NCBI GenBank assembly: GCA_964507855.1
Contig: CAZDQS010000004.1
Span: 14,888 to 78,887, forward strand
Length of the DNA stretch: 64,000 bases
Direction of reading: 5' to 3'
Source of the DNA: an uncultured Candidatus Saccharibacteria bacterium
Lineage (GTDB): Bacteria; Patescibacteriota; Saccharimonadia; Saccharimonadales; CAZDQS01
The notes under the pieces were generated by a model. The model did not search any database. It was not told the DNA's origin and saw only the letters and a program-made list of their open reading frames with translations. The position numbers and the translations under genes were made by a program. The stretch's first letter is position 1; each line of letters starts with the position of its first letter. Below, one piece after another: positions 10,200 through 28,511 of the stretch.

Positions 10200-12782
10200 T
10201 TAGCGAAGCCGGAGGATGCCGTCTTCTTCAGGGCTTATAAACTCTTGGGGCTTTGGAGAAGGTGCTTCCGGGCTTGGCTGCTGGGGCTGATCGGGTGAAG
10301 CTTGGTCTGTCTTTTTCTTGCGTTTGCGGGTGCGCTTGCGCTTTTTCTTTGGCTGCGCCTCTTCATCGAGTGGGCCGATCTCGCCACCAGCCGCACTGCC
10401 TACGGAAGGCTGGGGGAGCGGTTCGTGGGATGTCTCAGTCGGCATAACCGGCTGGGCTTCACGCTTCACTCGCGGTTTCTCACTCATCTGCCGAAAGGCT
10501 TGTTCTGGCGTCATGTAGCGGCCACGGACGTAATCTTCGATATCTTCGCGACGGTACGCATACCGCTGGCGACTACGCTGGACAATCTCACCCACAAAGT
10601 CTTCGCCAAACGGCGGCAAATCAAGCGATGTTGCCGAAAACGCCTGGGCCTTTTCGCCGTATATTGTCATGCTGATAACAAAGTGCCGGTTATGCATGTG
10701 CACCAGGTCGTACTCCAGGAATTTTGGTTCAAAATACCGCTGCATGACCCGCGCATCATCCGCGCCCATGCGAAAAGCGATAATTGAACCGACGTTGCCG
10801 AAGACCGCGTCTTTGACCTCCATAGACATCTGAGCAATGTACTGGTTAGCGACAGTGAGGTTCAGGCCGTACTTGCGGGCTTCAGACAAGATAGTCGCGA
10901 ACGATTCTGTGGCAAAGTTCTGGAACTCGTCAACATAGAGATAAAACGGCGACCGCTGGTCCTGAGGAATATCCGCCCGACTCATGGCGCCAAGCTGAAT
11001 TTTGGTCACCAAAAGCGCACCAAGCAGCGCAGCATTGTCCTCGCCGATAAGGCCACGCGAGAGGTTCACGACGAGAATTTTCCGCTCGTCCATAATCTGA
11101 CGAATATTGAAGCTGCTCTTGGGCTGGCCGATGATATTGCGCACAATCGGGTTGGCCGTAAAGGCGCCGACTTTGTTCAGCACCGGCGCAACCGCCTCGG
11201 CCTGGAATTTGTCATTCCAGCTGGCGAACTCCACCGTCCAGAAATTGCGCACCACCGGATCCTCGACGTATTTCAACACATCTTGGCGGAACTTTTTATC
11301 CGTCAGCATACGGGTGATATCGAGCATAGTCGAATCAGGGTAGTCAAGCAGCGCGAGCAAGCAATACCGCAGGATATATTCCAAACGCGGGCCCCACGAC
11401 TCGAACATGCGCTTCAAGACACCAATAAGCTCTGAAGCGGTGTGGGTCTTGAGCTTCGGGTCGTTCACCTCCATTGGGTTAAAGGCAATCGGGAAATCCG
11501 TATCCGCCGGGTTGAAGTAAATAACATCACTGACGCGTTCTTCCGGAATGCGACGCAGGATGTTCAGCGCGTAGTCGCCGTGTGGATCAATAACAGCAAA
11601 GCCGTACGGGCTGTAGATGTCAGATATCGTCAACAGCTCCAACATACCGGACTTACCAACACCGGTCTGTCCAATAATATAGAGGTGTCGTCCGCGGTCG
11701 GACCGCGGCAAGCCAAAAGCAGTGTTGTGGCCGCGGAAGTTGGTGATTGCGGCCGGGCTTATATCCGGCTGCTCCTGTCCGCTGAGGATGGGCAGATTAG
11801 CCGGCGGCTCGGCTGTGTTCGAGCTCGCCCAAAGAATAAATGGTGTTTCCACGTTGGTATGCGGCAAATGGTAGAGCGTAGCGATTTCTTCGATATTGCA
11901 GATAAAGCCCTTATTGAGAATTCGCTGACGGTAGACCTCAAGCGCGGCCGGGTTGTCCGTCAGCCGCCGTCCCGCGAAACCGTTCAAGTACGTGGTGTTG
12001 AACTGTTTGTAGCTGGCAATAATAGCCTGCATCCGCAACTTGGCCTGCGACGGGGGAAGGTTGCCGCGATAGACAATCCGAATTGCCGTCTCATATGCCA
12101 GCTTCTGGCTCTTTGTCTCAGCGCCCGTAATCCGAGCCTGCTGGTATTCCGTCAGCTTCACCGGTGCGGCGTCCTTGCCGTCAGGCGGTGTCCAGAGTGC
12201 AGTCATAGCCTTGGTAAAACCAAGACCGCCGCCGCTCCGCATGTTGGCGATGTAGCTTTCGCTCTTGCGATGCCAGTTGTCGGCTGCCGGCCGGACGACG
12301 TGCTGCAGCCACGCCTCCTCATTGTCCTCGAACTTCGCAAGCGCCGCTGTAATGGCCGCCAGCGGGTCAACCTCGAAGCTCTGGAAAGTCTTGATTGGCA
12401 AAGCTTCGTGACCAGTCAGCTTCAGTTCGGACATAAGGTTCGTCTCGTAGTGACCGCCTTCTTCTGTCGTGTAGTCTTGCACTTCAGAAATCTGCACGGT
12501 CGGATACTGGGCGTAGATTTGCTCCTCAACGAAGTCCTTCAGCTCCTCAGGCACCCAGACATAAAACGCAATGCGCTTCTTTCGTACTGCAATCTCGAGA
12601 CTGATCCGCTCCCGGACACTGGAAGAGAAGTAACCCGCCCGAGGACTCATCAACAGCCCATGCAGACTGGCAAACAGCTGCTCGGCGGCAAGCTCTTTCT
12701 TGTCATTCGTCCGCGGCACTTGCAGGAGCAGCACAACGCCGTTTTGAGACAGGGGAGAGGACTTATGGCGTTTCAGTATCAT
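10200..12782 (-). CDS. VirD4/TraG/TraD-like P-loop ATPase (type IV coupling-protein-like, FtsK/HerA superfamily) with Pro/Lys-rich tail
   Basis: Walker A GQTGVGKSG, Walker B LYVDEFQNF, TraG/TraD-type C-terminal region; no N-terminal TM helices evident. Confidence 0.8.
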   Translation of the reverse strand: MILKRHKSSPLSQNGVVLLLQVPRTNDKKELAAEQLFASLHGLLMSPRAGYFSSSVRERISLEIAVRKKRIAFYVWVPEELKDFVEEQIYAQYPTVQISEVQDYTTEEGGHYETNLMSELKLTGHEALPIKTFQSFEVDPLAAITAALAKFEDNEEAWLQHVVRPAADNWHRKSESYIANMRSGGGLGFTKAMTALWTPPDGKDAAPVKLTEYQQARITGAETKSQKLAYETAIRIVYRGNLPPSQAKLRMQAIIASYKQFNTTYLNGFAGRRLTDNPAALEVYRQRILNKGFICNIEEIATLYHLPHTNVETPFILWASSNTAEPPANLPILSGQEQPDISPAAITNFRGHNTAFGLPRSDRGRHLYIIGQTGVGKSGMLELLTISDIYSPYGFAVIDPHGDYALNILRRIPEERVSDVIYFNPADTDFPIAFNPMEVNDPKLKTHTASELIGVLKRMFESWGPRLEYILRYCLLALLDYPDSTMLDITRMLTDKKFRQDVLKYVEDPVVRNFWTVEFASWNDKFQAEAVAPVLNKVGAFTANPIVRNIIGQPKSSFNIRQIMDERKILVVNLSRGLIGEDNAALLGALLVTKIQLGAMSRADIPQDQRSPFYLYVDEFQNFATESFATILSEARKYGLNLTVANQYIAQMSMEVKDAVFGNVGSIIAFRMGADDARVMQRYFEPKFLEYDLVHMHNRHFVISMTIYGEKAQAFSATSLDLPPFGEDFVGEIVQRSRQRYAYRREDIEDYVRGRYMTPEQAFRQMSEKPRVKREAQPVMPTETSHEPLPQPSVGSAAGGEIGPLDEEAQPKKKRKRTRKRKKKTDQASPDQPQQPSPEAPSPKPQEFISPEEDGILRLR

Positions 12783-15536: not shown

Positions 15537-16810
15537 AAACCCGCGTATTTGCACTCATAGATTGCAACAATTTTTTCGTCTCATGCGAAAGGATCTTCCG
15601 GCCAGACCTCGAAGGCAGGCCCGTTGTCGTACTGTCCAGCAACGACGGCTGTGCTGTCGCCAGGTCGAACGAAGCCAAGCGCCTCGGCATCCCCATGGGC
15701 GCACCCGCTTTCAAGTACCGGCAGCTGTTCGAGCGGGAAAGGGTCGTACGGTTCAGCGCCAACTTTGAGCTCTACAGCGATATCTCCCGGCGGATAACCC
15801 ATATACTTACTGAAGTTACGCCGCGTATTGAGATCTATTCTATTGATGAATCATTCCTAGACCTTTCGACGCTCGACATCCGTGATTATGAGGCATGGGG
15901 CAGGGCAGTGCGGACACGCATCCAGAAGGAGGTTGGCGTACCGGTTTCTGTCGGCATCGCACCCACCAAGACGCTCGCCAAGCTCGCCACCGAGTACGCC
16001 AAGCAGCATCCGGACTCCGGCGGCGCTACGTCATTCATAGACAAAGACCTGAAGCCCTACCGGCAGCATATTGCCCTGGAAGACATCTGGGGTATTGGCT
16101 GGCGCCTCGCGCCTCGCCTGCGGGCGCTTGGCCTCGCCACGGCCGATGACGTAGCCGGATTACGTCCACAGCTTGCCCAAAAGCTCATGGGTATCCACGG
16201 CCGCCAGCTGGTGTACGAGCTGAACGGCACGGCATGTTTTCCCATGGAACTCCTGCATCAAAAACCCAAGAGCATCGCCCGCACCCGTACCTTTGGCGAA
16301 GACACCCGGGAGTTTTATGTACTGGAGGCAGCTGTCGCTAACTTCGTCACCCAGGCCGCCTTCCGGCTGCGCCAGTCCGCCCAGCTGGCCCGCCGCTTAG
16401 GCCTATTCCTCTGCAGCAATAAACACAAACCCAATTACCAGATATGGAACCAAGAGGCGGTGTTCCAGGTACCGACAGCCGACACAGGACAGCTCATTTC
16501 CGCCGGCATCGCCTTGCTAACCGACATGTACGAGCCTACCACCGAATATCATCGGGCAGGGGTGTGGCTGCATGACTTTGTCCCTGCTGATCAACTTCAA
16601 ACCGACCTACTCGGCACCGTCGACGTGCGTGAACACGCCCGCGCCATGAGCCGCATGCAGGCCATCGACGGCATCAATAACCGCTACGGCCGCCGCACCA
16701 TCCGCTTCGCCGCCGAAGACCTCGCTCAGGCCTGGCAACCCAAACACGGCTTGCGCAGCCCCCGCTACGTTTCCACTTGGGAAGAGCTGCCACTCGCGCG
16801 TATAGTATAA
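15533..16810 (+). CDS. umuC: Y-family DNA polymerase (UmuC-type, Pol V catalytic subunit)
   Basis: FALIDCNNFFVSCERIF..., VLSSNDGCAVARSNEAKRLGI, SIDESFLD motifs. Start moved to the MKTRVF ATG overlapping the upstream stop. Confidence 0.9.
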   Translation: MKTRVFALIDCNNFFVSCERIFRPDLEGRPVVVLSSNDGCAVARSNEAKRLGIPMGAPAFKYRQLFERERVVRFSANFELYSDISRRITHILTEVTPRIEIYSIDESFLDLSTLDIRDYEAWGRAVRTRIQKEVGVPVSVGIAPTKTLAKLATEYAKQHPDSGGATSFIDKDLKPYRQHIALEDIWGIGWRLAPRLRALGLATADDVAGLRPQLAQKLMGIHGRQLVYELNGTACFPMELLHQKPKSIARTRTFGEDTREFYVLEAAVANFVTQAAFRLRQSAQLARRLGLFLCSNKHKPNYQIWNQEAVFQVPTADTGQLISAGIALLTDMYEPTTEYHRAGVWLHDFVPADQLQTDLLGTVDVREHARAMSRMQAIDGINNRYGRRTIRFAAEDLAQAWQPKHGLRSPRYVSTWEELPLARIV

Positions 16811-16821
16811 TCACCTCTGTT

Positions 16822-17622
16822 ATGAAAGCCACCGACCAGCTACTGGCAAAATATCCGCTTATTTCCGACCAAATTAGCCGGGAAGAGTTGGGCGTGGTTT
16901 TGCGGGAGTTGGAAACAACACTGCAGCAAAGTGTTCCTGGAACAGTGGTAGAGTTCGGCTGCTACAAGGGCACAACCAGTCTGTTTATCCGCCGACTGCT
17001 AGATTACTACAAGGATTCACACCGTACGGTCGGAGTACCTGCACTTGAGCCAAGTTTCGGTGCGGCGGCGAGGAACGCAAGCGAGGCGTACATGTCGTAC
17101 GGTGAGCGCGTACCGGAGCCGCCCAGCCGAAAATTGGCCAAGAGACCGGCAGAGTCTCTGGCTTTGCCAGAGAGCAGGCCGGACGGTGCAGGTACTCCGA
17201 GGGAGTTCCATGCGTATGATTCTTTCGAAGGCTTGCCACCCAAGAGCAGGGAAGACCAGAGTGCCGCCGGCGTGGATTTCACAGCTGGCGAACTCGCGAT
17301 CAGTAAAAAGCAATTTCTGAAAGAATTCCACAAAGCAGGATTGCAACCACCTATCACGCATAAGGGCTGGTTCAATGAGCTTTCCGATAAGGATATCCCA
17401 GAAGAAATTGCCTTTGCGTTCCTCGATGGGGATTTTTATGGTTCCATCAGGGATTCGTTGCAGCTCGTTTGGCCGCGGCTGCACGAGCAGGGGGTGATAT
17501 TGATTCATGACTACAAGCGTGAGACGCTGCCCGGGGTAGAGAAGGCGGTGCACGAGTTTCTGCAGGACAAACCGCACCGCCTGAGGTACGAACACAATAT
17601 TGCGATTGTGGCGCAATCTTAA
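16822..17622 (+). CDS. TylF/MycF-type class I SAM-dependent methyltransferase with a 59-codon in-frame insertion
   Basis: VEFGCYKGTTS (SAM-binding loop), DSFEGLP, LDGDFYGS, ILIHDY motifs; insertion between ...KDSHR and EFHAYDSFEG. Confidence 0.8.
   Translation: MKATDQLLAKYPLISDQISREELGVVLRELETTLQQSVPGTVVEFGCYKGTTSLFIRRLLDYYKDSHRTVGVPALEPSFGAAARNASEAYMSYGERVPEPPSRKLAKRPAESLALPESRPDGAGTPREFHAYDSFEGLPPKSREDQSAAGVDFTAGELAISKKQFLKEFHKAGLQPPITHKGWFNELSDKDIPEEIAFAFLDGDFYGSIRDSLQLVWPRLHEQGVILIHDYKRETLPGVEKAVHEFLQDKPHRLRYEHNIAIVAQS
17030..17200 (+). repeat. family-1 GC-rich palindromic insertion element, copy B (171 nt)
   Basis: Perfect 15-bp terminal helix 17030-17044/17186-17200; inner helix 17049-17060/17127-17138; central CGTAC hairpin. 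Confidence 0.75.
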
Positions 17623-17641
17623 GCGTTGCTATAATAGGCGC

Positions 17642-18097
17642 ATGGCGCTGCGGCAGCTGATTGACAAGATAAAACACCGCGAGCGAAAGCCACTGAGTCC
17701 TCGCGCACTCAACTTCATTGCGCTCCTGCTCGGCCTGGCCGTCATTGTGACATTGGCGATTGCCAGCCCGTACGTGCTCAGGATTTTTGATAAGCCAGAA
17801 GTAGCCACCGCAGAGGAAGTGACAATTCCGCATCTTGACCTCGCACCCATAGAAGAAGCTCAGCCTGTTCCGGTACCAGAAACTCCTCAGCCCCCGCAGC
17901 ATGAGACCCCTCAAGTCAGCGGCCTCCAGACAAAAGATGACTCACAGGAATTTCGTAAGCGAGATAAAAAGCGCCGCCGGACACACCAAGCCAAACCAGA
18001 ATCAACGCAACACAAGCACCAGCGTCTTGATCAAACCGTCAAAAGCACACTCGAAGCACTGCGCCGCCAGTTTTATTTCCAGAGGAAAAACGACTGA
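17642..18097 (+). CDS. hypothetical membrane protein (151 aa)
   Basis: ORF from MALRQL...; one TM (FIALLLGLAVIVTLAIASPYVL); basic C-terminus. Confidence 0.45.
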   Translation: MALRQLIDKIKHRERKPLSPRALNFIALLLGLAVIVTLAIASPYVLRIFDKPEVATAEEVTIPHLDLAPIEEAQPVPVPETPQPPQHETPQVSGLQTKDDSQEFRKRDKKRRRTHQAKPESTQHKHQRLDQTVKSTLEALRRQFYFQRKND

Positions 18098-18144
18098 TTG
18101 AAAGTACCAAAGTAAAAACCGGAGGCTAGCTCCGGTCATTACTT

Positions 18145-18299
18145 TGGTGACCTCACGGGGAATACAGGTATAATCCGCCCGTTTGCCAGCACGCTGGCGG
18201 GGGATTATCGAACCACCTGGGATTCGATTCCGTTTCTCGGCGAGAAACTACCAATGAAAAACACCCACCAAAAGAGTGGGTGCCTTTCATTGGTGACCC
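18145..18299 (-). repeat. 155-bp direct repeat, distal copy (starts with the 3'-terminal 19 nt of tRNA-Glu)
   Basis: 150 of 155 positions identical to 19168-19322. On the minus strand it reads terminator hairpin, three further hairpins, then ATTCCCCGTGAGGTCACCA. Confidence 0.85.
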
Positions 18300-18514
18300 T
18301 AACCAAAGAGACTGATGCCAGCAATTGTTAGTGTTTGTATCAAATATAAATAGCGTGAAACGCTGCTATACTTGCTCTTGCGGAAGTGCCTACTCTCCCA
18401 GGAAGACTGAGTAGCTCTACAGCTTATATAGCCCCTATCCCATATTCTTAGTGGTGACAGTTATTAGCCTGCTTATCTATGCAGTCAAGGCAGCAGCTAT
18501 CAAATCAGTCGTTT

Positions 18515-19090
18515 CTAATTGGTCGGTGATAGAGTTTTAATAGAGTCGTCCACTGATTTTCGGTAGGTGCCACTGAAGAAACCATCGCCCGCATGCGTGG
18601 GGTCATAGTAATAGAAGTAATCACCGACAGTCTTGTGAGACCAATTGTTTTGTGTTGCACAATCTTCGTTAGTATCACACCTAGCTAAACCTGATTTTGT
18701 ACCTGTCTTCGCTCGATACAGCAGACCCATCTTTTCCTGTGTCTCAGGACCACCACTTAGCTTACCCTCAGCTTCGAGCGAAGGACTGGTTAGACGAACC
18801 GATTCTATCCCCCTATAGTTTTGGTAGTTCTCGTAGGTGAGATCTTGAATCTCATTCGGTACACTAATTTGCACACCCCATTCTTTAATATCGAGGTATT
18901 TACTATTGCTTGCTTCTTTATTTGCTTGATTTGTTGCTGATGACTGTTCGAATTGAGCAGTGCTGGTAGTCTCTTTATTCTTGTTGCTCTGGCGGTCGTA
19001 TACGAGCCAACCCACAGCTCCAAGTAGTCCAACTACAACTACTACGATAAGTATTTCAACGACACTAAAACCTTTTTGATTAGCTTTCAT
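18515..19090 (-). CDS. type IV pilin-like protein (prepilin-type N-terminal cleavage/methylation domain)
   Basis: MKANQKG/FSVVEILIVVVVVGLLGAVGWLVY: G-F cleavage site, Glu at +5, hydrophobic helix. AAGGAG SD upstream of this ATG. Confidence 0.8.
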   Translation of the reverse strand: MKANQKGFSVVEILIVVVVVGLLGAVGWLVYDRQSNKNKETTSTAQFEQSSATNQANKEASNSKYLDIKEWGVQISVPNEIQDLTYENYQNYRGIESVRLTSPSLEAEGKLSGGPETQEKMGLLYRAKTGTKSGLARCDTNEDCATQNNWSHKTVGDYFYYYDPTHAGDGFFSGTYRKSVDDSIKTLSPTN

Positions 19091-19167
19091 ATATTCTCCT
19101 TTATTCTCCTTATGCTCGTTTATAACATGAATGAAATAAAAAAGCACTTGTTAAAGTACTCAATCAT

Positions 19168-19322
19168 TGGTGACCTCACGGGGAATACAGGTATAATCCG
19201 CCCGTTTGCCAGCACGCTGGCGGGGGATTATCGAACCGCCTGGGGTTCGATTCCGTTTCTCGGTGAGAAACTACCAATGAAAAACACCCACCTGAAGAGT
19301 GGGTGCCTTTCATTGGTGACCT
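19168..19322 (-). repeat. 155-bp direct repeat, tRNA-proximal copy
   Basis: See 18145-18299. Its last 9 nt (19314-19322) are the real 3' end of tRNA-Glu. Confidence 0.85.
19276..19313 (-). terminator. Rho-independent terminator directly after tRNA-Glu
   Basis: Minus strand: GGCACCCAC-TCTTCAG-GTGGGTG followed by TTTTTC. Confidence 0.7.
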
Positions 19323-19388
19323 CACGGGGAATCGAACCCCGATTGCCAGGATGAGAACCTGGTGTCCTAACCGTTAGACGATGAGGCC
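19314..19388 (-). tRNA. tRNA-Glu (anticodon CTC)
   Basis: Manual cloverleaf: GGCCTCA/TGAGGTC acceptor (one G.U), D arm GTCT-AACGGTTA-GGAC, anticodon arm CCAGG-TTCTCAT-CCTGG, T arm CGGGG-TTCGATT-CCCCG, encoded ACCA. Confidence 0.92.
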
Positions 19389-19645
19389 ACAGCTTGCGGC
19401 AGATATTATCTCCTGCATGACAATCTATTGCAAAAAGTACGGACGGTCTTGGTGTCCTAGTCACGTTCCGCGCCCCCGAAACTTTCATACTACAAACAAG
19501 TTTGTAATCTGAAAGGTTTCCTTGCATACCGCCACTGGCGGTATTCACACCAGACGATGGGGCCGGATCGGCATAAGCCCGAGGCAATGTATCGTCGCAA
19601 AAGACCAACAAATCGTACCACAACAGGGGCGAATTGTCTACCTAG

Positions 19646-19681
19646 CCAAATAAAACCGGTCGGTACAAGCGTACCGGCCGG
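19646..19681 (-). terminator. Rho-independent terminator-like hairpin (minus strand)
   Basis: Minus strand: CCGGCCGGTAC-GCTT-GTACCGACCGG followed by TTTTATTT; no annotated gene upstream of it. Confidence 0.5.
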
Positions 19682-19879
19682 ATGCGCGCATACTTAGATG
19701 TTTCGCCAAAACAACTAAGGGAGGGGGTTTGTTGTTTTTGGTTTATGCCCACCTAAATAGCAACTTCATGGTAGCAATGTAATTCCAAGCTTGTCAATAT
19801 GCTAATGCTTTATACAATACTAGTTTAGGCCGCAACAAAAACGTATACTTCTAGGTAAGCATAATGCTTATGTAAAACC

Positions 19880-21646
19880 ATGCAAACCGTAAAACCATAT
19901 TGGTACCGCCTCTATTACGGCTGGATGCTCCTCTATAGCATCGGGCTGCTTGCTGGCTTTTTTGCGGTTAAATACTTCCCGTCGCTTGAGTCACTCGGCC
20001 AACATTTTGAGCTTACAACCACAACGGCACTCTTGTCCGGGCTATACCTCTTTTACGCACTAACTGTTTTCTGGTTTATACGCAAACGCAATGAGCAGTT
20101 AGCATTATTTGCGGGACTGTGGATCTTCGCCATGATTCTCCTTAATGGACTGGGGCAGACCAACCCGCACTTCAGCAACCTCCTCTATGCGCTCCCCTGG
20201 ATTGCCATGGCGGCATTCAACGGCATGTTCGGCGCGCCTATCGCACTTGGCTCGGTGTGTCTCACGGGCGTGTATATCGTACTCGAACACGAGTTTGACT
20301 TCATGAGCTTGAGCGGTGTTTCCGTGTTCCTGTTTGTTGCCGATGCCATTGCTGCCTACGGCTGCTACCGCTTATGGCGACGCGTCTATATCAACGTCAA
20401 CGAGGCACGCATTCAGCAACTGACCGGAATGATTGTCAACAAAGACGTGCAGTCCCAGATACTCATTGAGTCCATTAACGAAGGTGTCATCGGCTTTGAC
20501 CACGAAGGTGTTGTGCGCATCATCAACCCGGCTGCCGCCAAGCTTACCGGCTGGGACACCAAAGACGCCCAGAACCTCGATGTCAACGCCGTCATGATGC
20601 TCGCACAAGAAGACAGCACCCCGCTCGAGAGGGAAGAAAACCCAATTTCCTTGGCAATTACCAGCAAGCAACACGTCAATAAAACTTTGCAGTTAACAAG
20701 CAAGACCGGCAACAAAACAATTATTTCACTCTCTGTATCGCCAGTCATCGTGCCTGATATCGACCAGCCAGTCGGAGGCGTAGCGGTGTTCCGCGATATC
20801 AGCGCCGACAGGGAAGAGGAACAGCGTCGGGCAGAGTTCATCAGCACTGCCAGCCACGAAATGCGCACACCGGTAGCAGCAATCGAAGGCTACCTAGCGC
20901 TCGCCATGAACGACCGCGTTAGCCGGATTGACAGCAAGGCCCGGTCATACCTCGAAAAAGCCCACTCCTCCACGCAACACCTCGGCAAACTTTTCCAAGA
21001 CCTGCTCACCAGTGCGCGGGCAGAGGATGGACGCCTGGCAAGCCATCCGGTCGTGGTCGAGATGGGCGAGTTCCTTGAGAGGCTAGCAGAAGATTTGCGC
21101 TTCGCGGCACAAAAGAAGGGCCTGCAAATGGAGTTTGTCATGAGCAGCGGCGCTGCCGATCAAGTCTCAATCGACGCAACCGCCAGCAACAACAAAATCG
21201 TCCGCCCCCTCTACTACGTTCACGTCGACCCTGACCGCATCCGAGAGGTAGTTACGAACCTCTTTGATAACGCCGTCAAGTACACCGAGAGCGGCAAGGT
21301 CAGCCTCGGCCTCACGGGCGACCAAGCAGTTGTCCAGGTATACGTCCGCGACACCGGCGCTGGCATTCCTGCCGAAGACATCCCGCACCTTTTCCAGAAA
21401 TTCTACCGGGTCGACAGCTCCGCCACCCGCACAGTAGGCGGCACGGGCCTCGGCCTCTTTATTTGCCGCAAGATTGTTGAGTTGTATCAAGGTCGTATCT
21501 GGGTTGAGAGCGAACCAGGCAAGGGCAGCACCTTCTACATTAACTTGCCGCGCCTCGGTACTGCCCGGGCAGAAGAATTACGCGCAAAAGAAGCCTCCCA
21601 CCACTTATCTTCTGTTCCTGGGCATGGTACAATACGGACAACATAA
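19880..21646 (+). CDS. membrane sensor histidine kinase (multi-TM, PAS, HisKA, HATPase_c)
   Basis: H-box STASHEMRTP; N/G boxes NLFDNAVKYT, DTGAGIP, GGTGLGLFICRKIV; N-terminal hydrophobic helices. A TTGTCA-16-TACAAT promoter-like site lies about 80 nt upstream. Confidence 0.9.
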   Translation: MQTVKPYWYRLYYGWMLLYSIGLLAGFFAVKYFPSLESLGQHFELTTTTALLSGLYLFYALTVFWFIRKRNEQLALFAGLWIFAMILLNGLGQTNPHFSNLLYALPWIAMAAFNGMFGAPIALGSVCLTGVYIVLEHEFDFMSLSGVSVFLFVADAIAAYGCYRLWRRVYINVNEARIQQLTGMIVNKDVQSQILIESINEGVIGFDHEGVVRIINPAAAKLTGWDTKDAQNLDVNAVMMLAQEDSTPLEREENPISLAITSKQHVNKTLQLTSKTGNKTIISLSVSPVIVPDIDQPVGGVAVFRDISADREEEQRRAEFISTASHEMRTPVAAIEGYLALAMNDRVSRIDSKARSYLEKAHSSTQHLGKLFQDLLTSARAEDGRLASHPVVVEMGEFLERLAEDLRFAAQKKGLQMEFVMSSGAADQVSIDATASNNKIVRPLYYVHVDPDRIREVVTNLFDNAVKYTESGKVSLGLTGDQAVVQVYVRDTGAGIPAEDIPHLFQKFYRVDSSATRTVGGTGLGLFICRKIVELYQGRIWVESEPGKGSTFYINLPRLGTARAEELRAKEASHHLSSVPGHGTIRTT

Positions 21647-27650: not shown

Positions 27651-28511
27651 ATGAGTATAACAACGCTTAAGCTTGTAAATAAAGACATCCCTGAACCGCT
27701 CAGGCATATCCCTACGCCCCCGAAACAACTCTGGGTTCTCGGCAATCTCACCCCACTGCTGGATAAACCAAAAGTGGCCGTTATTGGTAGCCGCAAAGCA
27801 TCGCCTTACGGGACCCATACCACCGAGAAGCTGGCTGGCGAGCTAGCGGGGAAGGGTATTGTCATCATCAGCGGGCTGGCGCTCGGGATAGACGGTATCG
27901 CCCACCGGGCAGCGCTCGGCAGTGGTGGGCACACTATTGCAGTGCTGCCATGCGGTCTGGAGCGCGTCTATCCCTCTTCACACCGGGAACTGGCGAAACG
28001 CATTCTGGATGGCGGCGGCGCACTTATCAGCGAGTACCCCGAGGGTACTGAGCCGCGCCGCGAGAACTTCATTGCCCGCAACCGCCTCATATCAGGCTTG
28101 GCCGACGGCGTGCTAATACCCGAAGCAGCCGAGAAGAGCGGCAGCCTGCATACCGCCAACTTTGCCCTGGAGCAGGGAAGGACGGTCATGGCCGTACCCG
28201 GCAATATCACCAGCCCGACGAGTAAGGGGACAAACAACCTTATTAAAAGCGGTGCTACACCGGTCACCGAGGCTGCCGACGTGCTGCACGCGCTTGGCCT
28301 GGAAGGGATCACACCAGAGCAGACTGAATTACTCGGCCAGAACAGGGAGGAGCAAATTGTGCTAGACCTACTAGGCGACGGTGTTACCGATGCCGCCGAG
28401 CTGCTGGCGCGCAGCGAACTGACCGCGCCCGCATTCAACCAAACTCTCACTATGCTGGAGATTACCGGCCGCATTAAACCAGTGGGCGCCGGGCATTGGA
28501 CACTTCGGTAG
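27651..28511 (+). CDS. dprA: DNA processing protein DprA
   Basis: GSRKASPYG, ISGLALGIDGIAHRAAL, NRLISGL motifs of the DprA Rossmann fold. Confidence 0.9.
   Translation: MSITTLKLVNKDIPEPLRHIPTPPKQLWVLGNLTPLLDKPKVAVIGSRKASPYGTHTTEKLAGELAGKGIVIISGLALGIDGIAHRAALGSGGHTIAVLPCGLERVYPSSHRELAKRILDGGGALISEYPEGTEPRRENFIARNRLISGLADGVLIPEAAEKSGSLHTANFALEQGRTVMAVPGNITSPTSKGTNNLIKSGATPVTEAADVLHALGLEGITPEQTELLGQNREEQIVLDLLGDGVTDAAELLARSELTAPAFNQTLTMLEITGRIKPVGAGHWTLR

Follow-up and report, generated by a model that had tools for sequence, protein, structure and literature searches.

How does a lone type IV pilin gene come to lie between two nearly identical repeats, each of which carries the 3' end of a tRNA? 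The question is raised by a 64-kb stretch of contig CAZDQS010000004.1 from an uncultured Candidatus Saccharibacteria bacterium (the whole stretch is the window below), in which an intact tRNA-Glu(CUC) gene is followed on the minus strand by a short non-coding module, a pilin gene and the same module again. Saccharibacteria are epibionts with genomes of about 1 Mb, and their type IV pili are tied to host attachment, motility and DNA uptake; to our knowledge, little has been described of gene exchange among them. An earlier note on this DNA had read the pilin gene as a mobile cassette, with the repeats as the mark of its integrase-mediated insertion at the tRNA gene. Here, we compared the window with about 90 loci from relatives (labelled L0xx), including 80 related loci compared around the histidine kinase gene and tRNA-Glu. 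We consider it rather probable that the locus is an accretion array, in which three units were inserted serially between tRNA-Glu(CUC) and its old terminator by a recombinase acting in trans, most likely a large serine recombinase (LSR).

Three units behind tRNA-Glu

The array is read along the minus (tRNA-sense) strand, in positions of the window, and its promoter and terminator calls come from a consensus scan only. Two covariance models were built here, R1 for type-A modules, to which the window's own module M belongs, and R2 for type-B modules. The features are, in order:

19405 to 19433, minus strand: promoter-like site TTGCAA-17-GATAAT, directly upstream of the tRNA
19314 to 19388, minus strand: tRNA-Glu(CUC), intact, CCA encoded (ARAGORN; Rfam RF00005, 60.9 bits)
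19168 to 19313, minus strand: unit 1, M copy 1, 146 bp (repeats; type-A model R1, 45 bits, E = 2e-8)
18291 to 19167, minus strand: unit 2, pilin islet, 877 bp, 41.5% GC (sequence, GC, junctions)
18515 to 19090, minus strand: type IV pilin or pseudopilin-like gene in unit 2, 191 aa, class III signal KGF/SVVE (PF07963, TIGR02532)
18352 to 18364, minus strand: terminator-like hairpin downstream of the pilin gene
18145 to 18290, minus strand: unit 3, M copy 2, 146 bp, five differences from copy 1, closing with the 19-nt tRNA end at 18163-18145 (repeats, alignment, type-A model R1, fold)
18106 to 18148, minus strand: terminator hairpin t0, ACCAAAGTAATGACCGGAG...CTCCGGTTTTTACTTTGGT, behind the array (inverted repeat and terminator scan)

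The 3' end of tRNA-Glu is the anchor, or attB-like site, of this array. Its last 19 nt, ATTCCCCGTGAGGTCACCA, begin at A58 in the T-loop and occur at three minus-strand sites (18145, 19168 and 19314), where 0.02 would be expected by chance; besides the tRNA itself, these are the exact copies closing both modules that the earlier note had described. A distal direct repeat of the tRNA 3' end, the mark of an island at a tRNA gene, is therefore present as 19-nt copies and, at the pilin islet, as a core of 8-12 nt. The repeat finder returned two direct 155-nt repeats with 97% identity at 18144-18298 and 19167-19321, one base away from where the earlier note had placed them, and pairwise alignment gave exactly the five differences it had counted.

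Each copy of M begins with a terminator hairpin of the Rho-independent type, which in copy 1 has its arms at 19317-19299 and 19291-19273 and pairs with the ACCA of the tRNA. There follow a hairpin h1, an inverted T-arm copy (GGAATCGAACCCC, the reverse complement of tRNA positions 49-61), a direct T-arm copy (GGTTCGAT, positions 51-58), a hairpin I and finally the 19-nt tRNA end, at 19186-19168 in copy 1. Neither a gene nor a recombinase lies inside. The 127-nt module that precedes the closing tRNA end had been called structured, and folding bears this out, with energies of -59.7 and -56.6 kcal/mol in the two copies (z = -5.8 and -4.7 against shuffled sequence). The predicted minimum-energy fold is identical in both, a terminator hairpin and then a four-way junction, and the five differences fall in loop positions or turn one C-G pair into U-G. 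M is an independent 146-bp non-coding mini-element, present twice. A terminator hairpin heads every unit and t0 comes after the last; the t0 hairpin (18148-18106) also pairs with the ACCA preceding it, and is probably the original terminator of tRNA-Glu, now displaced behind the array. A read-through fold resembling a giant tRNA is predicted across the locus, but was dropped as uninformative because it is a trivial outcome of the duplicated 3' end. End duplications were also looked for at the tRNA-Leu of the window, and none were found.

The pilin islet is acquired cargo

The pilin islet has a GC content of 41.5%, compared with 53.2% for the window. It opens with a weak terminator-like hairpin and closes with ...GGTTAG and then GGTCACCA. 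These final 8 nt of the tRNA are all of it that is found at the boundary between islet and distal repeat. A 12-nt identity, GGTCACCAATGA, consisting of GGTCACCA and the first bases of M, occurs at both islet junctions (19175-19164 and 18298-18287). The islet therefore shares only 8-12 nt with the tRNA end, and the 155-bp repeats are not its attachment-site (att) duplication.

If a 75-aa open reading frame (ORF) lying within the pilin gene in a different frame is set aside, the segment between the repeats has one ORF of 60 aa or more, so that the description of the pilin as the only gene there stands with this small reservation. The protein matches PF07963 (E = 3.5e-5, 23.6 bits, cut-off 21.2) and TIGR02532 (19.5 bits, cut-off 16.3), and it has the N-terminal class III signal G/F-x-x-x-E followed by a hydrophobic helix that is expected of a pilin. 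We collected 181 homologues, and those with a named source are from Saccharibacteria. Only one is close, that of L002 (79% amino-acid identity), the rest being at most ~41% identical over most of their length. Homology between the window and L002 is confined to 19101-18465, that is the ribosome-binding site, the gene and ~50 nt downstream. In L002 the pilin gene adjoins a C-terminal LSR fragment (iterated profile E = 5.5e-36), which matches the LSR of L051 at residues 408-495 (BLASTP E = 6e-6), and the orientations imply the order tRNA, LSR remnant, pilin, with the same polarity as in the window.

The low GC, the islet's own terminator-like hairpins, the junction repeats, the different context of the L002 homologue and the hypervariable interval described below together show that the pilin gene is horizontally acquired cargo inserted at a tRNA hotspot. 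The cassette proposal thus holds insofar as the islet is foreign DNA inserted at such a hotspot, and fails where it took the 155-bp repeats, which are two copies of M, for the signature of that insertion: relatives of M sit behind tRNA-Glu in many Saccharibacteria, usually free of cargo.

An insertion hotspot between tRNA-Glu and dinB

In 66 of the 80 related loci tRNA-Glu(CUC) lies beside the histidine kinase gene, with tRNA-Glu(UUC) in its place in L054; the best match to the window's kinase among species representatives, which do not include the source genome itself, is 55% identical. This kinase and the pilin homologues both assign the window to Saccharibacteria (TM7). On its other side the tRNA faces a convergent dinB orthologue. 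The two are separated by as little as 13 nt (L041) and as much as ~5 kb, with distances of 0.5-3 kb in between and 2.5 kb in the window. The comparison of relatives suggested in the earlier note hence finds a hypervariable interval with alternative cargo and modules, and, together with the GC of the islet, the deviant composition and variable presence expected of an island. The tRNA-Glu to dinB interval in Saccharibacteria is an insertion hotspot.

Copies of the tRNA end recur throughout this interval. Exact 16-nt copies are found 79-189 nt downstream of the tRNA in nine species (L011, L014, L020, L030, L040, L056, L057, L075 and L078) and 987 nt downstream in a tenth, each agreeing with the tRNA of its own species; L045, L048 and L077 have near-exact copies, 9-nt cores add further cases, and seven metagenome contigs show the pattern of tRNA end, gap and tRNA end. 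The same comparison traced relatives of M, which stand behind tRNA-Glu in many Saccharibacteria, mostly without cargo. L011 contains two identical tandem units. In the arrays of L040 and L056 the distal tRNA-end copies are more degenerate and the units are of differing types, which argues for successive insertions at the tRNA-proximal side.

Where cargo is present, it forms small islets with the tRNA end at their boundaries and differs from locus to locus:

L076: two islets, one with ParE/Phd and one with Fic
L043: a 240-aa protein
L037: a RidA-like ORF, called by eye from sequence
L065: small reverse-strand ORFs, toxin-antitoxin-like on reading alone
L084: a peptidase S51 and a hypothetical protein

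The ParE/Phd, Fic and RidA-like islets contain no recombinase gene. The layout of L084 is that of the window, with a module, cargo and the same module again, the module sequence being unrelated to M, while in L066 and L015 the cargo is followed by a partial tRNA end, a terminator and a type-A module. In the window, L037, L065 and L066 the islet edges lie exactly at the tRNA-end core.

The tRNA-Glu gene is flipped relative to the kinase gene in 8 of 67 loci (L023, L025, L029, L031, L035, L068, L077 and L081), which suggests recombinase-mediated inversion at the site.

Serine recombinases at the tRNA end

No recombinase gene is found among the 65 ORFs of the 64-kb window, as the earlier note had observed for integrases; all translations were read, ten unassigned ones were searched against Pfam, and a home-made tyrosine-recombinase profile of low sensitivity was run. 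A recombinase inside or beside the element, as expected of an island, is found only in relatives, where genes with the LSR domain set (Resolvase, Recombinase and Zn_ribbon_recom) lie directly against this tRNA:

L028, 4146-5807: LSR gene, antisense through the tRNA end
L029, 1545-3146: LSR gene, antisense through the tRNA end
L044, 4222-5793: LSR gene, antisense through the tRNA end
L051, 3899-5560: LSR gene, antisense through the tRNA end
L095, 10001-11554: LSR gene, antisense through the tRNA end

In L028, L029, L044 and L051 the gene converges on tRNA-Glu. The frames of all five extend antisense across the terminator and through the final 38 nt of the tRNA, so that the C-terminal tail of the protein (..RGIEP..PG) is encoded by the T-arm of the tRNA. 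In L095 and L096 an LSR again lies directly against the tRNA, and the gene order is that of the window (kinase, regulator, RluB ... Der, Pth, DprA). L033 has an LSR gene at the edge of the locus, the tRNA lying outside the part that was fetched; its LSR island terminates in a degenerate tRNA end, after which come a type-B module and a complete copy of the tRNA end, an order of island and module that parallels that of pilin islet and M in the window.

We propose that the array would arise by serial site-specific integration at the tRNA 3' end, one unit after another, each unit bringing a replacement tRNA end and a terminator. As every unit ends with the tRNA 3' end, the tRNA stays intact, a new copy of the target arises and further stacking is possible. 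The recombinase would be supplied in trans, the most likely agent being an LSR of the family that abuts this tRNA in relatives. An equivalent rotation, which the data fit as well, is that a 1023-bp circle of M and the pilin islet integrated into a resident M. Recombination between the two copies of M, or between the 12-nt cores, could remove the pilin gene again. For these bacteria, a site able to accumulate and shed small cassettes, a pilin among them, would be a simple route to surface variation. Integration at the tRNA, as first supposed, stands as far as the hotspot is concerned, while a classical tyrosine integrase is not required.

Several observations weigh against this scheme. No recombinase gene was found in the window itself. 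Apart from L033, modules do not accompany LSRs: the covariance models detect neither type-A nor type-B modules in L094-L096, and in L028, L029 and L044 they return the loci's own tRNA only. A type-B module is present in L051, on the upstream side of the tRNA. Nor is a long tRNA-end duplicate seen in the LSR islands within 6-12 kb. Phages with tyrosine integrases use tRNA-Glu as well, and the covarying hairpins, host-matched T-arm copies and upstream mirror modules described in the next section are left unexplained by a plain att model. The idea that M is the right end of LSR islands was rejected, given that L094-L096 are without modules and L033 is the sole LSR island beside one. An attP reconstructed for the pilin islet was inspected by eye for dyad symmetry, and none that convinced was seen.

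In L094 (10001-11598) a recombinase 85% identical to the LSR of L028 lies against tRNA-Arg(CCT) instead. The cargo of this island includes genes of a cyclic oligonucleotide-based antiphage signalling system, CBASS (SMODS, SAVED), and a LexA-like gene.

The phages lead to a first alternative, namely that the units are decayed islands or prophages placed in the T-loop or 3' end of tRNA-Glu by tyrosine integrases whose genes were later deleted. A textbook signature of tyrosine-integrase integration is duplication running from T-loop to 3' end, a pattern covered by the sublocation classes that Williams reportedly set out in 2002. Three AT-rich phage contigs from IMG/VR (L090-L092) indeed encode the C-terminus of a tyrosine integrase followed by an attP consisting of the last ~50 nt of tRNA-Glu(CUC), L093 has the intact tRNA with the same downstream sequence, and L051 contains a weak Phage_integrase fragment. 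However, those phages are AT-rich, share an identity block of 50 nt that starts in the anticodon stem and have no module, and the genes that abut this tRNA in genomes are LSRs, not tyrosine integrases. Across the roughly 90 loci the low-sensitivity profile found no tyrosine integrase adjoining any module or islet. We consider this origin unlikely.

Structured modules on both sides of the tRNA

The bodies of type-A modules, of which M and 17 further instances were compared, are conserved in structure and not in sequence. Hairpin I comprises three helices in which 81-83% of cells are paired, compared with 26-44% when the partners are slid; 11 of its 16 pairs change on both sides, and none of 500 shuffles reaches the observed covariation score. 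Type-B modules form three hairpins in a junction, with compensatory changes in 18 of 37 pairs and some conserved G-U pairs. Whatever their type, nearly all of the 22 units examined have their best matches to the host tRNA, inverted as well as direct, at positions ~41-62, and several of these carry host-specific bases (for example GGCAACCGGG in L030, GGCAATCGGG in L057 and CGAACCCGCGA in L075); a few units show only short matches elsewhere. The tRNA-sense strand is the better-folding strand for most modules.

A further module lies on the other side of the tRNA:

19450 to 19564, minus strand: upstream 5' module, a pseudo D-arm with an insert in its loop (model R2, 87.8 bits, E = 7e-23; covarying fold)

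It is made up of a tRNA copy covering positions 1-13 (19564-19552, one mismatch), a type-B insert of ~92 nt (19551-19460) and one covering positions 20-29 (19459-19450), and aligns with the type-B modules of L030, L040, L057 and L077. It is therefore a mirror image of the downstream modules, sitting just upstream of the tRNA's promoter-like site, and the same arrangement is seen in L051, L057, L020 and L043. L020 and L043 also contain near-full-length copies of tRNA-Glu (1-17, 20-51 and T-loop) with inserts in both D-loop and T-loop, ~525 to 200 nt upstream of the start of the intact, insert-free gene. In both loops the insert replaces the GT within G-GT-T. Type-B hits number 21 in 1.1 Mb; some lie away from tRNAs, partly in tandem, in A-rich or hairpin-loop contexts (L071, 11605-11900; L060, 13217-13520), near which a similar hairpin without the insert is found (GACCTGCAGAGGGGGTGGGCACCGCTGCAGGTC).

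The mini-elements appear undescribed. Rfam 15 gave tRNA matches only, both for window positions 17000-20500 (E <= 1) and for five module-rich loci (E <= 0.01); module core sequences had no match in IMG/VR, and the whole locus matched GenBank phages and PLSDB plasmids at tRNA-Glu only. The literature searched on Patescibacteria tRNAs describes only group I introns in the anticodon loop. One tentative possibility, which we hold to be well short of likely, is that the modules are Saccharibacteria-specific miniature elements of at least two insert families, type A and type B, that home to D- and T-loops in sequences derived from tRNA-Glu and bear host-matched inverted and direct copies of their target. 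They would work as folded single-strand recombination sites, like attC or the attP of CTX phage, or as intron-like or guide-like RNAs, and the locus would be a cassette platform whose recombinase is encoded elsewhere. That the modules are categorically new is a claim we would make with the same reserve. Should they prove to be a new type of recombination site or RNA, they would offer a small and tractable study system.

It is likewise doubtful, though conceivable, that the structured inserts are themselves mobile, in an intron-like manner or dependent on RNA or single-stranded DNA structure, homing to the D- and T-loops of tRNA-Glu and surviving only in non-functional duplicates, in which case the 155-bp repeats would be their products and the pilin islet a bystander. 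The covariation of both types, the constant G-GT-T insertion point, the better folding of most modules on the tRNA-sense strand and the lack of a match in Rfam or in the phage and plasmid collections are consistent with this, as is the range of sites occupied by type B, which include the T-loops of 3' copies, the D-loops of 5' copies, both loops of the pseudo-tRNAs in L020 and L043, and sites outside tRNAs. Yet no mechanism is known for self-insertion of an element of 60-105 nt, the modules sit behind strong terminators without a promoter, and all functional tRNA copies are free of inserts, so splicing is not required. Moreover, like ordinary integrative elements, the units bring along promoters or terminators together with replacement ends for the tRNA.

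Each copy of M also contains an antisense promoter-like site, GTGACC-16-TATAAT (18147-18174 and 19170-19197, plus strand). The -10 of this site, located in the insert's A/T-rich closing stem, is incompletely conserved across type A. For that reason, and given that most modules give the better fold in the tRNA sense, a role for M as an antisense small RNA was not adopted. Midway along helix P2 of type A, a C-A mismatch (alignment A4, columns 21/43) is present in 15 of 17 sequences; it would pair as U-G on the opposite strand, which leaves the functional strand ambiguous. M with its tRNA end was also considered as a T-arm with an expanded loop and rejected, many type-A direct copies being unable to pair with the 3' strand of the T-stem; for type B a closing GGG/CCC helix is predicted but invariant. 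IS200/IS605-like elements, IS110 bridge RNA, TnpB guide RNA, retrons, dif/Xer sites and the known small ribozymes were considered too, and each lack here their defining partner gene or motif. The modules yield pseudo-tRNA fragments and repeats able to break assemblies.

Local rearrangement or misassembly

Could the locus have formed without any dedicated site-specific recombinase? M might have been duplicated by unequal crossing-over or slippage between tRNA-end copies, and homologous or illegitimate recombination, following natural transformation for instance, might have brought in the pilin gene. The identical tandem units of L011 and the 155 bp of homology between the M copies would suit such a course, and the window encodes a DprA (27651-28511, called by eye from the translation; the matching gene of L095 has PF02481). 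The arrays of L040 and L056, however, mix module types and so point to separate insertions, not to duplication; in several species (the window, L037, L065 and L066) the islets are bounded precisely by the tRNA-end core, and cores of 8-19 nt are short for RecA-dependent exchange. We regard this course as improbable. A mis-join of repeat-containing contigs into the order M, pilin, M is very improbable, for although the source is a metagenome-assembled genome and exact-protein look-ups of the pilin and the downstream ORF returned no independent assembly of the locus, the M copies are unlike at five positions and in their left flanks, the independent metagenome contig L084 shows the same architecture, and unit arrays occur in many assemblies.

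Comparison with known integrative elements

An accretion array of this sort is known in kind, from islands at tRNA and tmRNA genes, from accretion and from recombinase-less members. Three features are unusual: the units are miniaturised, a serine recombinase probably acts at a tRNA, and structured, tRNA-mimicking modules stand on both sides of the gene.

The closest documented analogue is the ssrA island family of Dehalococcoides, in which a CcrB-like serine integrase of ~540 aa (DsiB) is encoded on the reverse strand beside attL, insertion occurs midway along the T-loop with 20-bp direct repeats, islands are found in tandem, and some that lack integration genes are treated as cis-mobilizable (PMC3146451). 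Staphylococcal cassette chromosome (SCC) elements are discussed beside these islands in the same paper (PMC3146451). As there, the target here is the 3' part of a single-copy tRNA-like gene, with elements stacked downstream of it. [quoted passage not shown] In contrast to the Dehalococcoides islands, the target is tRNA-Glu, the array in the window has no recombinase, most units are either non-coding and 135-190 bp long or hold one or two genes in 0.5-1.3 kb, and they carry structured inserts and inverted T-arm copies.

SCC and pseudo-SCC elements at rlmH (orfX) of staphylococci, and the Enterococcus cassette chromosome, use Ccr serine recombinases and restore the 3' end of their target; direct repeats of 15-20 bp bound the SCC elements, and their composite arrays include ccr-less members mobilised in trans. 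The restored target end, the short direct repeats and the stacked arrays with recombinase-less members are all found here, whereas the SCC target is a protein-coding gene, SCC elements are kilobases long and are not known to contain structured non-coding modules. Cis-mobilizable elements (CIMEs) are bounded by att sites, lack an integrase of their own and are built by tandem site-specific integration at tRNA genes, but they are kilobase-sized remnants of tyrosine-integrase elements and are not known to have 146-bp structured modules or host-matched inverted repeats.

The resemblance to integron cassettes lies in small one-gene arrays that include toxin-antitoxin genes, a module conserved in structure and a recombinase outside the cassette. 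Unlike in integrons, there is no intI beside the array, its neighbours being the histidine kinase gene and dinB, the anchor is the 3' end of a tRNA, and the pilin islet has its own terminator-like hairpins. Unlike attC, the modules have several hairpins, not one long imperfect hairpin, and no R''/R' boxes (GTTRRRY, which GGTTCGA does not fit).

Miniature inverted-repeat transposable elements (MITEs), Rickettsia palindromic elements and Correia elements are multi-copy structured units of 60-150 bp that can sit in RNA genes or hairpins. The modules are similarly multi-copy, structured and non-coding, but they lack terminal inverted repeats and remain bound to arms derived from tRNA-Glu. Examined as a MITE or an element derived from an insertion sequence, M did not qualify, the repeat finder giving internal hairpins only; the repeats that flank the units are tRNA-derived and 8-26 nt long, with no target-site duplication of fixed length.

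Neighbouring genes

Between the array and dinB the window encodes a TylF-like methyltransferase and a 165-aa ORF (16777-18097). Among the loci searched, the methyltransferase is present in only eight and the 165-aa ORF in none, so both may have inserted into this hotspot at an earlier time. A gene for an 860-aa protein with TrwB/TraG-type coupling-protein and HerA-like domains (10200-12782, minus strand) is located about 5 kb away from the array.

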